NCBI GenBank assembly: GCA_963767005.1
Contig: CAVYCN010000002.1
Span: 288,001 to 352,000, forward strand
DNA length: 64,000 bases
Direction: 5' to 3'
Source of the DNA: an uncultured Actinomycetes bacterium
GTDB lineage: Bacteria > Actinomycetota > Thermoleophilia > UBA2241
Positions within the stretch are counted from its first letter, which is position 1, and every line of letters begins with the position of its first letter. The translations under genes and the position numbers were made by a program. Positions 8,252 to 42,725 of the stretch are shown in pieces. Below the pieces are notes generated by a model that saw only the letters and a program-made list of their open reading frames with translations, was not told the origin of the DNA and ran no database searches.

Positions 8252-9661
8252 ATGAAGATCCTCACCCGTATGGGCGACAGCTCCACGGTCGAGATCACCC
8301 GTGACGAGTTGCGCCACGAACTCGAGGAGGGCACCGAGTCGGCCGCCAAGAGGGCCAAGATCCCTCCGCTCACCGAGAACGAGCTCGACTACCTCGAGGA
8401 CATGTTCGCCTGCCCCAGCCGCATCTGGGGCGTCGAGCGTGGTCACGAGGTCGTCATGACGAAGGACGGGTGCGTCAACGCCCTGAACTCGTCGCGCATG
8501 TCGAGCGGCGTGACGGCGCCGGTCAACCGCGAGGTCGGCGTGCGCCTCTTCGAGTCGATGCTCGGCTTCGACTCGATGGAGGTCTCGCACAACGACTACT
8601 CGGTCAAGCCGCAGCGCTTCCTCAAGGCGCTCGAGCAGGTGCACATGGAGCTCCTGCAGGAGACCACGATCTTCCCCCTGCTCTACGGCTTCATGCCCAA
8701 CCTGGGGCTCTACTACCGGCCCGACGGCTCCTTCGAGAACCCCTCCGACCTGCTGCCACTGGGCAAGATCGACGAAGCTCGCAAGACCCAGGAAGCGGCC
8801 CTGCAGGCGTGCATGGACGACTGCATCCTGATGAGCGACTGCATGCTCGAGATGGGCGCCGACGGCATCGACTACGACACCGTGGCATCCACGGGCGACG
8901 CCGAGTTCCTCGCCGTCCTGAAGACGACCGAGCACGTTGCCAACGTCACCGGTCTGCCGGTCGAGATCGGCATGTCGGCCGAGATGGTGCTCGGCTTCCA
9001 CGGCGAGCTCGAATACGACGGCGTGCGGCTCGCCGGCCTGTGGCCGCACCAGCAGCTCCAGCTCTGCGAGAAGGCCGGCACCGCGATCTTCGGGCCGGTC
9101 GTGAACACCAACACCAGAAAGACGGTGCCCTGGAACCTCTCGCGGGCCGTCACCTTCGTGAAGGCCTGCACCGACATCGCCAAGATCCCGGTGCACGCCA
9201 ACGTCGGCATGGGCGTCGGCGGCGTGCCGATGTTCGAGACGCCGGCCGTCGACGCGGTGACCAGGGCCAGCGCGGCCATGGTCGAGATCGGCCGCGCCGA
9301 CGGGTTGTAGGTGGGTACAGGCGATCCAGCCGGCATGCACATGGCGCATCTGCTGGCCTCGTCGATGGGTGGCATCAGGGCCGCTGGAGATCTGGTAGCC
9401 CGTATGGAGCTCAAGAAGATGAGGATCACGGAAGCCAAGCAGTACGTGGCCGACAAGCTGCACGTCAGCCCGCTCGACCTGTCCGACCCGCTCGTCATGC
9501 GCAACCTGCGCGAGGAGCTCGACATCGGCGTCATCACCGGCGTGCCGGGCGTCGCGAAGGGCATGGCGGCGAAGTTCCGCATCGCCGAGCTGCTCGACAT
9601 CGAGATCAACTCGGTGGAGCAGTTCAAGAAGAAGACCGGCGTCACGACCGCCAAGGTCTGA
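8252..9661 (+). CDS. mtbB: Dimethylamine:corrinoid methyltransferase family protein with in-frame TAG (9308-9310), predicted pyrrolysine at residue 353; 469 aa
   Basis: TRMGD N-terminus, [33 protein letters not shown]-[TAG]-[27 protein letters not shown]; similarity to MtbB continues in frame across the TAG. Confidence 0.92.
9313..9401 (+). promoter_or_regulatory. Candidate PYLIS-like stem-loop immediately 3' of the amber codon
   Basis: GGGTACAGG pairs with TCTGGTAGCCC (bulged); TCCAGC 9325-9330 with GCTGGA 9383-9388; GGC/GCC; ATGC/GCAT; local excess of A/T-ending codons. Confidence 0.5.
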
Positions 9662-9670
9662 GAGCGCCGC

Positions 9671-9729
9671 AAAAGCGAAGCGACGGGGCGGGGCGAGCCA
9701 GAGGGCTCGCCCTGTCCCGTCGCCGTTTT
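9671..9729. terminator. Probable bidirectional intrinsic terminator between convergent operons
   Basis: AAAA...GCGACGGGGCGGGGCGAGCC / GGCTCGCCCTGTCCCGTCGC...TTTT. Confidence 0.75.
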
Positions 9730-33293: not shown

Positions 33294-34613
33294 ATGGCTG
33301 TGATCCCTACCTTCGCCGTGATCGGCGTTCCCAACGCCGGCAAGTCCACGCTCATCAACCGGCTGACAGGCACCCGGGTGGCGGTCGTGCACGAGACGCC
33401 GGGCGTGACCCGCGACCGCAAGGTCGTCGAGACCGAGTGGGGCGGCCGCGTCGTGCGCCTGATCGACACCGGTGGCTTCGACCAGTCCGATCACACGCGT
33501 CTCGGGGGCGACATCCGCGCGCAGGTCCGGGCGGCCCTGGCCGCGGCCGACGGCGTCGTCTTCGTGGTCGACGGTCGGGCCGGCCCGCTGCCCGGCGACC
33601 ACGACATCGCCGACGTGCTGCGCCGCGCCCGCATCCCCACCCTGCTCGTTGCCAACAAGGTCGACGACCGCCGCCACGAAGCCGACCTCGTCGCCTTCCA
33701 CGAGCTCGGTCTGGGCGAGCCGCTGCCGGTCTCGGCGCTGCACGGCACCGGCAGCGGCGACCTCCTCGACGAGATCGTGGCCCTGGCCGACGGCCTCACC
33801 GGCGAGGACGCAGAGGCGGGGGAGGAGACCGACGACCAGGCCGCGGAGATCGCGGTGGCCATCGTCGGGCGGCCCAACGCCGGCAAGTCGTCGCTGCTGA
33901 ACGCCTTGGTCGGCGAGGAGCGCGTCATCGTGAGCGACGTCGCCGGCACGACGCGCGACGCGATCGACACGACGGCGACCTGGCACGGGCATGACTTCCG
34001 CTTCGTCGACACGGCCGGCATGCGCAAGGCGGCCAAGGTCTCGGGGGTCGAGTACTACGCGTACCTGCGCAGCCTGGCCACGCTCGACCGCGCCGGTGTG
34101 GCGATCGTGGTCGTCGACGCCGCCGTGGGGCTCGGCGAGCTCGACCTGCAGATCGCCGGCGAGGCGATGCGACGCGGCTGTGCCACCGTGCTTGCCGTGA
34201 GCAAGGCCGACATCGTTGCGCCCGACCTCGCCGAAGTCGGCGGCACGGCCGCGCGCAAGCTGCGCCAGCGGCCGCGAGCGATCGCCGTGTCGGCTGTCAC
34301 GGGTCGCGGTCTCGAGCAGCTCCTCAACGTAGTGACCGACCTGTGGAGCCGCTATACTGCCCACATCCCGACCGGCGCCCTGAACCGGGCGCTCGCCGCG
34401 ATCACCGAGCAGCGCACCATGCCGGGCAAGGGGCGCAAGAAGCTGAAGCTCTACTACATCTCCCAATTCCAGACCGCGCCGCCGCGCTTTGCGATCGCCG
34501 TGAACGACCGTGACCTCGTGACGCGCGACTTCGGGTTCTTCGTCGAGAACCGCCTGCGCGACGCCGTGGGCTACGAAGGCGTGCCGTTGATCATCGACTT
34601 CAAGGAGCGCTAG
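33294..34613 (+). CDS. der: Ribosome biogenesis GTPase Der/EngA
   Basis: Two GTPase domains (GVPNAGKS/DTGG/NKVD and GRPNAGKSS/DTAG) plus KH-like tail. Confidence 0.96.
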   Translation: MAVIPTFAVIGVPNAGKSTLINRLTGTRVAVVHETPGVTRDRKVVETEWGGRVVRLIDTGGFDQSDHTRLGGDIRAQVRAALAAADGVVFVVDGRAGPLPGDHDIADVLRRARIPTLLVANKVDDRRHEADLVAFHELGLGEPLPVSALHGTGSGDLLDEIVALADGLTGEDAEAGEETDDQAAEIAVAIVGRPNAGKSSLLNALVGEERVIVSDVAGTTRDAIDTTATWHGHDFRFVDTAGMRKAAKVSGVEYYAYLRSLATLDRAGVAIVVVDAAVGLGELDLQIAGEAMRRGCATVLAVSKADIVAPDLAEVGGTAARKLRQRPRAIAVSAVTGRGLEQLLNVVTDLWSRYTAHIPTGALNRALAAITEQRTMPGKGRKKLKLYYISQFQTAPPRFAIAVNDRDLVTRDFGFFVENRLRDAVGYEGVPLIIDFKER

Positions 34614-35273
34614 ATGCTCCCCTGGCTGGCAGGCGCCGCCCTCGTGATCGTGGCCTACGTGATGGGTTCGGTGCCCTTCGCGATCGTGGTCGGCAAGTGG
34701 TTCTGGCACGTCGACGTGCGCGACCACGGCTCCGGCAACGTCGGCACGACCAACGTCTTCCGCGTGCTCGGCAAGCGCGCCGGCACGCTCGTGCTGATCG
34801 GCGACATGGCCAAGGGCTTCATCCCGGTCTGGGTGGCCGCCCACTACTATCCGGCCTGGTTCGCGCTGATCGTCGCCCTGGCGGCGCTGATCGGTCACAT
34901 GTACTCGGTGTTCCTGCGCGGTGGCGGCGGCAAGGGCGTGGCGACCGGCGCCGGCATCATCCTCGCCCTCGTGCCCTGGATCTTCGTCATCGCCATCGTC
35001 GTGTTTCTCGTGCTCCTGCTCACCACCCGCATGGTGAGCGCGGCTTCGATGGCCGGGGCGATCACTTTTGCGGTGTGCACGATCTCGTTCCACAAGCCGG
35101 TCTGGTACGAGGTGCTCTCGGTGTTCGCCGCCCTCGTCGTCGTCTACCAGCACCGCACCAACATCAGACGCATCGCCCTGCGCTGCGAGAACAAGGTGAC
35201 GTTCCCCTGGGACCACGACCGGCGGTCGTCGGGCTCGGGCGCTCACGGCGCCGGCGGCGCCTCGACCCGCTAG
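34614..35273 (+). CDS. plsY: Glycerol-3-phosphate acyltransferase PlsY
   Basis: GSVP, GSGNVGTTN..R, D..KG, GH, GGKGVAT, HR.NI.R. Confidence 0.95.
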   Translation: MLPWLAGAALVIVAYVMGSVPFAIVVGKWFWHVDVRDHGSGNVGTTNVFRVLGKRAGTLVLIGDMAKGFIPVWVAAHYYPAWFALIVALAALIGHMYSVFLRGGGGKGVATGAGIILALVPWIFVIAIVVFLVLLLTTRMVSAASMAGAITFAVCTISFHKPVWYEVLSVFAALVVVYQHRTNIRRIALRCENKVTFPWDHDRRSSGSGAHGAGGASTR

Positions 35274-41228: not shown

Positions 41229-41822
41229 ATGAGTCAGGAACGTACAGAAGGGCGCCGCGGCGAGCGCCGCGAGCGCCCCGAGATCCCGCTCGAGCGGCAG
41301 GCGGCGGCGCGCCGCCAGATCCGCACGCTCGGCGATCCTGTGCTGCGCGAGGCGGCCCGGCCGGTCGAGAGCTTCGATGCCGACCTCGCCGCGCTGGCGC
41401 GCCGCATGATCGCCGTCATGCGCGACGCGCCGGGCGTCGGGCTCGCCGCGACCCAGCTCGGCGTCGTGCAGCGCGTCCTGGTGTACGAGGTCGACGACGA
41501 CCACCCGGTCACGCTCGTCAACCCTACGATCGTCTGGTCGTCGCCCGACACCGAGGTCGCCGACGAGGGTTGCCTGAGCGTGCCCGGCGTCACCGTGCCC
41601 GTCGAGCGCTCCGTATCGGTGCACGTGCGGGCCCGCGACGTGCGCGGCCGGCGCCTCGACTTCGACGCCGACGACATCGAGGCGCGCGTCATCCAGCACG
41701 AGTCCGACCACCTGGACGGCGTGCTGATCCTCGAGCGCACGACCCGTGCCGAGCGCGCCCGTGCGTTGCGCGAGCTGCGCGAGCGCGACACCCAGGTCGT
41801 CGGCTCGCGCGCCGGGCTGTAG
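41229..41822 (+). CDS. def: Peptide deformylase
   Basis: GVGLAATQ, EGCLS, QHESDHL. Confidence 0.96.
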   Translation: MSQERTEGRRGERRERPEIPLERQAAARRQIRTLGDPVLREAARPVESFDADLAALARRMIAVMRDAPGVGLAATQLGVVQRVLVYEVDDDHPVTLVNPTIVWSSPDTEVADEGCLSVPGVTVPVERSVSVHVRARDVRGRRLDFDADDIEARVIQHESDHLDGVLILERTTRAERARALRELRERDTQVVGSRAGL

Positions 41823-41828
41823 GCGGCC

Positions 41829-42725
41829 GTGCGGATCGCCTGGGCCGGCACGGCGCACTTCTCGGTCCTCGTCCTCTCACGGCTCGCCGCGTCGTCCCAC
41901 ACGGTCGCCGTCTGTCTGACCACGCCCGACCGGCCGCGCGGGCGCCACGGCGCGCCGCAGCCGTCGCCGGTCAAGGAGTACGCGGCCGTCGCCGGCCTGC
42001 CCGTGCTGCAGCCCGACGACCTGCAGGCGCCCGCGGTCCTCGACGAGCTGCGCGCGTTCTCGCCCGAGGCCCTCGTAGCCTGCGCCTACGGCCGCATCGT
42101 GCCGCCCGCGCTGTTCGCGGCGCTGCCGGCATTCGTCGTGCATCCATCACTCGTGCCCCATCTGCGCGGCGCGGCGCCGGTCGTGCGTGCCCTCATGGCC
42201 GGCGAGACCGAGCTCGGCGTCACGATCCTGGCCATGAGCGCAGGGGTCGACGAAGGGCCGGTGGCGGCGCGCCGGGCCGTCACCGTGCCGCGCGACCGCG
42301 ACGCCGCCGAGGCCTACGAGCTGCTCGCCGCGCCGTCGGCCGAGGCGCTGGTCGCGACGCTCGACGAGCTGGCCGCGGGCACGCTCGTTTGCGCGCCGCA
42401 GACCGGCTCCGTCGACTACGCCGAGAAAGTGACCGAAGACGATCGCGTGATCGATTGGCGGCGGCCGGCCGCCGCCGTCGCCGACCAGGTCCGCGCGCTG
42501 GCGCCCGACGTCGGCGCCGTTGCGGAGCTCGGCGGCAGGCGGGTGCTGGTGTGGCGGGCGCGGCCCCTGCCGGCGCTGCCGACCGACGGCGAGGCGCGCG
42601 ATCGCCTGATCGTGCCCTGCGCCGACGGCGTGCTCGAGATCGTCGAGCTGCAGGAGGCCGGCAGGCGCCGCATGACGGCGGCCGAGTACCTGCGCGGCGC
42701 CGGCCGGCGCCTGGTGCAGGGCTAG
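41829..42725 (+). CDS. fmt: Methionyl-tRNA formyltransferase
   Basis: PDRP.GR, AYG, HPSL.P..RGAAP, D.GP; between def and rsmB. Confidence 0.93.
   Translation: MRIAWAGTAHFSVLVLSRLAASSHTVAVCLTTPDRPRGRHGAPQPSPVKEYAAVAGLPVLQPDDLQAPAVLDELRAFSPEALVACAYGRIVPPALFAALPAFVVHPSLVPHLRGAAPVVRALMAGETELGVTILAMSAGVDEGPVAARRAVTVPRDRDAAEAYELLAAPSAEALVATLDELAAGTLVCAPQTGSVDYAEKVTEDDRVIDWRRPAAAVADQVRALAPDVGAVAELGGRRVLVWRARPLPALPTDGEARDRLIVPCADGVLEIVELQEAGRRRMTAAEYLRGAGRRLVQG

Follow-up and report, generated by a model that had tools for sequence, protein, structure and literature searches.

A hairpin with an AGRN loop and a rare leucine codon flank pyrrolysine UAG codons in bacterial methyltransferase genes and likely act as a read-through enhancer

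The original PYLIS of Methanosarcina mtmB (Rfam RF01982, PYLIS_1) is a long stem-loop that starts a few bases past a pyrrolysine (Pyl) UAG, lies within the gene, and stops 97 nt past the UAG. In the accessible sections of one report, replacing the PYLIS of mtmB1 reduced the full-length product, and the element showed limited covariance and was unseen in mtbB (PMC2933860). The Rfam model PYLIS_2 (RF02509) is computational and has the gene set of Have et al. 2013, the available text of which describes distinct, family-specific structures and none for mttB (PMC3639795); PYLIS_3 (RF02510) covers mttB and likewise lies in the coding region downstream of the Pyl UAG. For bacteria, the part of Zhang and Gladyshev 2007 open to us reports that an element was sought and no common structure found (PMC1976440), and according to the available portions of three papers Pyl has been inserted in E. 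coli and in Methanosarcina without any element (PMC2933860, PMC12626013, PMC13663744). The accessible text of Kivenson et al. names no validated mechanism (bioRxiv 10.1101/2024.09.30.615893), that of a 2025 PNAS paper describes the mechanism of targeted insertion as not known (PMC12626013), and how UAG can serve as both stop and Pyl codon within one cell is a stated open question.

We examined this question in a 64,000-nucleotide stretch of bacterial DNA (the window), which carries an mtbB gene for a Pyl-type dimethylamine:corrinoid methyltransferase (8252..9661, + strand; 469 codons with the UAG read through and TAG translated as O). Its 469-residue product matches Pfam PF09505 (E 4e-189) and scores 526 bits against a cut-off of 369 in TIGR02368, the Pyl-type MtbB family. 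The in-frame UAG is Pyl codon 353 (9308..9310, +), homologues have a single TAG at the equivalent position, and the genome encodes tRNA-Pyl(CUA), pylSc, pylSn, pylB, and pylD. An intrinsic-terminator-like hairpin of 20 pairs, followed by a T-run, lies 3' of the gene (9680..9723, +). Relatives of mtbB were found in RNA-library contigs from three peat or wetland runs, in small shares and in contigs that carry no strand, level, or ends; expressed Pyl-mttB and mtbB have already been reported from peat Actinobacteriota, in the accessible part of that source (PMC10805028). We counted 16 Pyl genes in the genome, comprising 8 mtbB, 7 of the 41 MTTB-family matches, and 1 of 4 mtmB genes. The 41 MTTB-family matches, 8 mtbB, and 4 mtmB also represent a great expansion of corrinoid methyltransferases, and Pyl and Sec systems coexist in this genome.

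The same codon is in wide use as a stop. A codon-model gene caller ended 1,269 genes with TGA, 697 with TAG, and 85 with TAA, so that TAG closes 697 of 2,051 called genes (about 34%), housekeeping der, def, and fmt included, which creates a need for marking Pyl UAGs. The original prediction had listed nine window genes as TAG-terminated, and each of them is (an mttB-like gene, der, plsY, def, fmt, rsmB, rpe, ribBA, and ribH). Since both housekeeping and other genes end in TAG, we conclude that UAG carries two meanings in the host genome. Two of these stops are of interest in their own right: the der TAG (window 34611-34616) adjoins an in-frame plsY start, and the def terminus, GGG CTG TAG GCG (window 41814-41831), is in frame with fmt, such that read-through would join essential proteins in both cases. 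Apart from having CTG where Pyl genes have TTG, the def stop context is identical to the Pyl one, making it a natural control. The stop of pylSc itself is TAG (G000:C3:236048-236911; L032:3049-3912), and feedback by read-through could be possible there. A scan of 812 open-frame TAGs for further Pyl genes gave none that we judged convincing.

The region just past the mtbB UAG has a codon usage of its own. In this 71% GC genome, 11 of the 35 codons downstream of the UAG end in A or T, against 15 of 352 upstream, and the eleven A/T-ending codons named in the original prediction are all present (among codons +2..+31; 9314..9403, +). Genome codon usage predicts 1.91 such codons among the 35, and a count of 11 was reached in none of 200,000 simulations and in no 35-codon window of 5,000 simulated genes. 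The close orthologues L002-L009 show the same enrichment, with 9-14 A/T-ending codons per 35, and therefore the stretch is not an assembly chimera.

The prediction had explained these codons by an 89-nt hairpin (9313-9401) starting just after the UAG, and this structure did not withstand any of our tests. Its stability was unremarkable against dinucleotide shuffles (z +0.81, 157 of 200 equally good), its TCCAGC/GCTGGA helix had a pairing probability of 0.0 in the 9308-9421 ensemble, and among the matches listed 60.4% of its cells paired over 107 distinct sequences, a value that 377 of 500 shuffles equaled or exceeded. The locus thus differs from the original PYLIS, in that a long stem a few bases past the UAG has probability 0 and lacks covariation; RF01982 gave no match in the window region. 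Overall folding stability was also rejected as a signal, since all 200 synonymous resamples drawn at genome usage were more stable than 9308-9421 and the z-score against uniform resamples was only -1.4. A smaller proximal hairpin is predicted in this orthologue clade only (9329..9357, +; minimum free energy fold, z -0.87), where its codons are almost fixed among 23 orthologues (CAT in 23/23), and it was not part of the consensus fold of 108 sequences among the matches listed. We considered whether the proximal A/T-ending codons guard the fold of the distal hairpin described below, and rejected this idea. The effect was weak (0.89 versus 0.83; 125/180), leaving GGT, ACA, GAT, CCA, CAT, and GGT at +2..+20 largely unexplained.

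What the prediction did foresee was a selected, cis-acting RNA element after the Pyl UAG, and both covariation and the tie to Pyl UAGs bear this out for a different structure, a short distal hairpin that sits within the 3' arm of the proposed 89-nt stem. This core hairpin (9381..9398, +71..+88, +), recognized from pair probabilities, RNAalifold, covariation, and Rfam PYLIS_2, has a 7-pair stem with arms at +71..+77 and +82..+88 and an AGAY loop, here AGAU (9388-9391), 78 nt past the UAG. It was first seen in a UAG-anchored mtbB alignment, in which Gly +26 was always GGA (2.9% of Gly codons genome-wide) and the flanking third positions changed together. The window copy is a weak example, with a C-A mismatch at 9382/9397 (+72:+87) and three G-U pairs, although GGGC/GCCC extends it to 9378-9401 and the remaining pairs have probabilities of 0.97-0.99.

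A broad metagenomic sample of mtbB (at least 122 stretches) was collected with a search pattern in which third positions were free. For covariation analysis we used a set of 108 rows, made up of the window and 107 bacterial-type metagenomic rows, from which archaeal-type rows, duplicates, and rows with fewer than 105 downstream bases had been dropped. Among the matches listed, RNAalifold on these 108 sequences returned the core hairpin as its sole structure. In 107 distinct sequences, again among the matches listed, 95.5% of stem cells were paired, as opposed to 17-55% in slid-partner controls, and two-sided changes occurred in 54 cells versus 8.0 in shuffles, none of 500 being as high; the number of pairs with a double change (three) was unexceptional (57/500 shuffles). 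Codon alignments were used in place of a raw mutual-information scan, in which misregister from an indel beyond +100 dominated the signal. When 56 full genes were scanned along their whole length, the best two of 129 third-position pairs both fell in this stem.

These patterns could in principle be a by-product of the conserved amino acids (A-G-D-L-V), codon bias, shared descent, or an imported or mis-assembled lower-GC patch, and amino-acid positions do fix five of the seven stem pairs. We found, however, that covariation at the free third positions recurs on independent branches and runs against codon bias in both directions. Using 90 branch-disjoint pairs from a FastTree tree, double changes stayed paired in 17/23 cases at +72:+87 and in 10/10 at +75:+84, while six wrong-partner controls kept pairing in 0-3 of 5-19. 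A longer lower stem was rejected by the same test (+66:+93, 1/8; +69:+90 mixed, 13/24). The two synonymous pairs formed in 28/31 and 30/31 genes with GC3 below 0.5, where 11.4 were expected, and in 98/103 and 101/103 genes with GC3 above 0.75, where 44.9 were expected; in the latter group the loop GGA was present in 103/103 genes versus 5.5 expected. The signature is common to orthologues and paralogues at 46-98% identity. Covariation, tree, and GC3 tests thus largely refute the by-product reading, and we regard it as scarcely credible. Two features, G-U pairs that are fixed and an antisense fold of lower stability (-7.1 kcal/mol, versus -12.5 for the sense strand), point to sense-strand RNA, and from these gene comparisons we conclude that what is conserved is an RNA structure of the sense strand, its loop and stem kept against codon bias.

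The loop codon is GGA in 195 of 200 mtbB rows outside two Ile-before-Pyl clades, two of the 200 having later been regrouped as archaeal-type. Three of the 200 have GGC (L146, L147, and L156); they form one clade and belong to three genomes in which no selB was found, and the hairpin is kept in the other copies of those genomes.

Archaeal-type genes provide a contrast. In one tree clade with Ile before Pyl, whose member L226 has named kin in the Methanosarcinaceae, +72:+87 was paired in 1/9 rows, +75:+84 in 6/9, and GGA was present in 4/9. The mean hairpin probability was 0.18 for a small archaeal-type set of 13 rows (the nine clade rows and four ATA rows of unverified origin) and 0.89 for 180 bacterial rows, and 2 of the 13 do fold the hairpin. 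The synonymous pairs thus appear mostly broken in archaeal-type mtbB, and the breaking of these pairs by archaeal genes with identical amino acids further argues against a by-product of protein sequence.

Given this contrast, it is instructive to compare the hairpin with PYLIS_2, which matches the window at 9308-9407, from the UAG onward, with 56.5 bits against a cut-off of 36. The 3' hairpin of the model agrees with the mtbB hairpin in position and loop (aGAc), so the structure had already been catalogued as a prediction. The model leaves +75:+84 open, a pair that covaries in bacteria, and its 5' hairpin is not recovered here, since the window alignment contains many non-standard pairs and the consensus fold lacks it. 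An archaeal sequence with broken pairs scored 78.2 bits, more than the window, and PYLIS_3 matched an mttB without a UAG. Because PYLIS_2 scores hairpin-less archaeal DNA higher, its score is not diagnostic of structure; the PYLIS_2 and PYLIS_3 models largely track coding sequence, an observation that taken alone would favor the by-product reading.

Hairpins of the same kind were found in the other two Pyl gene families. Pyl-mttB has GUUGGC[AGGN]GCCAAC, with the loop at +72 and with codon swaps that preserve the stem (TTG..AAC to CTG..AGC; TTG..GCC to TTA..GCT), and PYLIS_3 has a structure without this AGGN hairpin. Pyl-mtmB has GACGU[AGGY]GCGUU at +108..+123, with the loop at +114, past the point where PYLIS_1 stops; this hairpin also occurs in Thermincola, Thermodesulfovibrionales, and Lachnospiraceae records. 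In each of mtbB, mttB, and mtmB, the gene's four rarest-codon columns include those of the loop-A codon and of the -1 codon. Additional pairing may exist near both elements. Codons +5..+13 of Thermoleophilia mttB (e.g., L042 and L038) could form another, proximal hairpin (CUCGGUGAC/GUCACGAG), which would account for GGT at +6 and +11. In mtmB (L072, L093, and others), a palindromic CAG CTN AAT GAG CTG at codons +30..+34, with AAT mostly kept, directly precedes the AGGY hairpin and might pair into a further stem.

We expressed the shared features as a strict rule (AGRN loop at +60..+120, at least 5 pairs, at least 3 of them Watson-Crick) and a looser form (at least 2 Watson-Crick), noting that the rule was shaped on the same Pyl genes to which it was applied. 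In the host genome, 15 of 16 Pyl genes passed the strict rule, the window copy being the miss, versus 14 of 682 true TAG stops, and mttB relatives without a TAG (41-49% identity) had the hairpin in 0/6 cases, one of the six being a same-genus copy in which TGG occupies the Pyl site. The element is therefore tied to Pyl UAGs rather than to stop UAGs. That same-genus mttB (L326:143-1588, -) reads TTG TGG, having lost the hairpin and kept the TTG, and may be a Pyl-to-Trp variant. Only 2 of 53 non-TAG alignments passed the rule, both apparently frameshifted pieces of Pyl-mtmB.

The looser rule was passed on the Thermoleophilia side by 59/62 mtbB, 51/58 mttB, and 12/16 mtmB genes (one frameshifted duplicate included), and in other genomes outside that group by 22/29 mtbB, 23/39 mttB, and 5/6 mtmB; 101 of 119 metagenomic mtbB sequences, archaeal-type ones included, passed among the matches listed. 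The looser rule is not unique to Pyl genes, as 35 other TAGs among the 812 in open frames also satisfied it. The element had been proposed as a feature of this lineage, which proved too narrow, since it extends to Firmicutes-side genomes and to many metagenomic bacteria. Some mttB genes have a CGGA loop or lack the stem. PylSn lacks its C-terminal tail at L298, L316, L317, L319-L321, and L323-L325, and several of these genomes have mttB genes of the CGGA-loop or stemless kind.

The codon 5' of the UAG, which the original prediction had not mentioned, is also constrained. The window UAG is preceded by GGG TTG (9302..9307, +), in which the -1 Leu is spelled with TTG, an otherwise rare codon (2% of Leu codons genome-wide). 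When Leu precedes the UAG, it is TTG or TTA in 237 of 243 Pyl contexts; among the true TAG stops of this genome that follow a Leu, 1 of 54 has such a codon, and true stops after Gly-Leu have CTN in 7/7 cases. A purine follows the UAG in 166/166 Pyl contexts, which is partly dictated by the amino acid.

Comparison with bacterial SECIS and SelB reveals both likenesses and differences. Both systems use a short coding-region hairpin 3' of a stop with two meanings, kept by synonymous choice and with a conserved loop G. SECIS, however, follows UGA immediately and at fixed spacing, with the GGUCU-type SECIS loop region of this genome's own fdhA about 19 nt past the UGA, whereas the Pyl hairpin loops lie at +72, +78, and +114. 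In addition, and unlike the SelB system, no dedicated elongation factor was found to accompany the hairpin, which is present where selB went undetected. Genome-wide SECIS scans were too strict and gave no set.

Taken together, the A-G-R-N hairpin 72-114 nt past the UAG and the rare UUG or UUA before it likely constitute an enhancer of Pyl insertion (read-through) in bacteria, a function we predict from comparative data and hold with somewhat better than even confidence. With the UAG in the ribosomal A site, the hairpin would lie outside the ribosome and stay folded, a protein reading the loop could shift the competition from RF1 to Pyl-tRNA, and a further effect of context would come from the UUR codon occupying the P site. 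Such an element would make Pyl insertion more efficient without being indispensable to it. The patchy hairpin in Firmicutes-side mttB argues for an enhancer rather than a requirement and fits the reports of Pyl insertion without an element. Several observations count against an enhancer: no other copy in the genome is as weak as the one in the window, which does not pass the strict rule, the distance from UAG to loop varies in a way that bacterial SECIS does not, and outside the Thermoleophilia group only 23/39 mttB and 22/29 mtbB genes carry the hairpin.

The variable spacing (72-114 nt) would suit a different role, in which the hairpin acts on the transcript, either by shielding mRNA from Rho-dependent termination or nucleases while ribosomes are delayed at the UAG, or by providing a site for decay or feedback that becomes accessible only when they stop there. 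It sits where mRNA is bare during a pause or termination at the UAG, and loss of the hairpin together with the UAG would be expected here as well. In form it resembles the AGNN hairpins of yeast Rnt1p, sharing an A-G-N-N loop and a short stem. AGNN tetraloops are RNase III-type signals in yeast, although the Rnt1p AGNN hairpin is a eukaryotic nuclease signal on long stems, and we know of no bacterial reader of AGNN hairpins. True TAG stops inside operons bare mRNA too, yet the hairpin is rare at such stops (14/682), the genome encodes a single dsRBD protein, and the -1 codon is constrained in parallel, which speaks for an action at decoding. We therefore consider a transcript role rather unlikely, at about one chance in four.

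It is also conceivable that the element works through the ribosome without any protein, by a Shine-Dalgarno (SD)-like loop (AGGN, GGAG) that pauses the leading ribosome or by direct contact with the ribosome or tRNA-Pyl. The loops and their flanks are SD-like, rare codons cluster at +1..+30, and no dedicated factor was found in 41 pyl neighbourhoods. Pausing at an SD-like sequence would need no stem, yet the stem covaries, and there is no conserved start codon at SD spacing, which also led us to reject re-initiation at an SD in the loop. For direct contact, the distance to the A site is too great unless folding shortens the spacer, and the consensus fold has no conserved spacer structure. We view protein-free action as improbable.

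Returning to the enhancer, the shared hairpin can be seen as a variant of the PYLIS idea, with far stronger comparative support than the catalogued models and with a function that is predicted. We found no publication on the shared AGRN hairpin or the UUR context, though subscription papers and supplements, covered in part, may bear on priority. Since the exact synonymous sites to mutate and compensate are defined, the question of dual UAG use becomes directly testable. If the enhancer is real, it would do for pyrrolysine what SECIS does for selenocysteine, would improve the prediction of Pyl proteins, and could possibly allow site-selective amber suppression for genetic code expansion.

An enhancer read by a protein calls for a reader, and we considered several candidates. 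We detected selB in 41 of the 46 Pyl genomes; in the five others, which may be incomplete, the hairpin was present in 16/22 genes, versus 45/65 in a selB-positive Firmicutes-side set. SelB was therefore rejected as the reader, as it appears not to be needed, with the reservation that those genomes may lack sequence. A search of the host genome for a second SelB or a Pyl-specific elongation factor gave one SelB-wing protein above the cut-off; a second SelB-sized GTPase was rejected as an extra SelB on reading its translation, which we take to be that of IF-2, and EF-Tu went unrecognised among nine PF00009 matches, probably because of an assembly gap. We counted three RF-1-domain genes in this genome and a single dsRBD gene, and saw no obvious additional copy of either kind. 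The 41 pylSc neighbourhoods (21 Thermoleophilia-side and 20 others) had nothing in common beyond pyl genes, in a clustering made noisy by shadow ORFs. PylSn, the gene for which is present in 37 of these 41 neighbourhoods, binds tRNA-Pyl and has no established physiological function, as described in the accessible part of one source (PMC9630628), and its basic N-terminal segment lies immediately outside residues 13-94, the region alignable with the archaeal domain of known structure. Our guess, a speculative one that is more likely to be wrong than right by a good distance, is that stand-alone PylSn reads the hairpin and holds tRNA-Pyl near the marked message, which could give it a role; against this, the PylSn N-terminal domain also occurs, fused, in Methanosarcinaceae, which mostly lack the hairpin. 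In its fullest form, the picture would be a two-part bacterial Pyl signal, with a UUR codon 5' of the UAG and, 70-120 nt past it, an AGRN hairpin. Three unrelated genes would have acquired this signal independently, and a protein, perhaps PylSn, would recognize it, so that UAG encodes pyrrolysine where it is marked and still closes a third of the other genes. We offer this tentatively, giving it about one chance in three. In the pylSc and pylSn neighbourhoods we also noted a radical SAM gene (L032:6000-7064), with no NCBIfam family at cut-off, at 15 of the 21 loci on the Thermoleophilia side and at none of the other 20.
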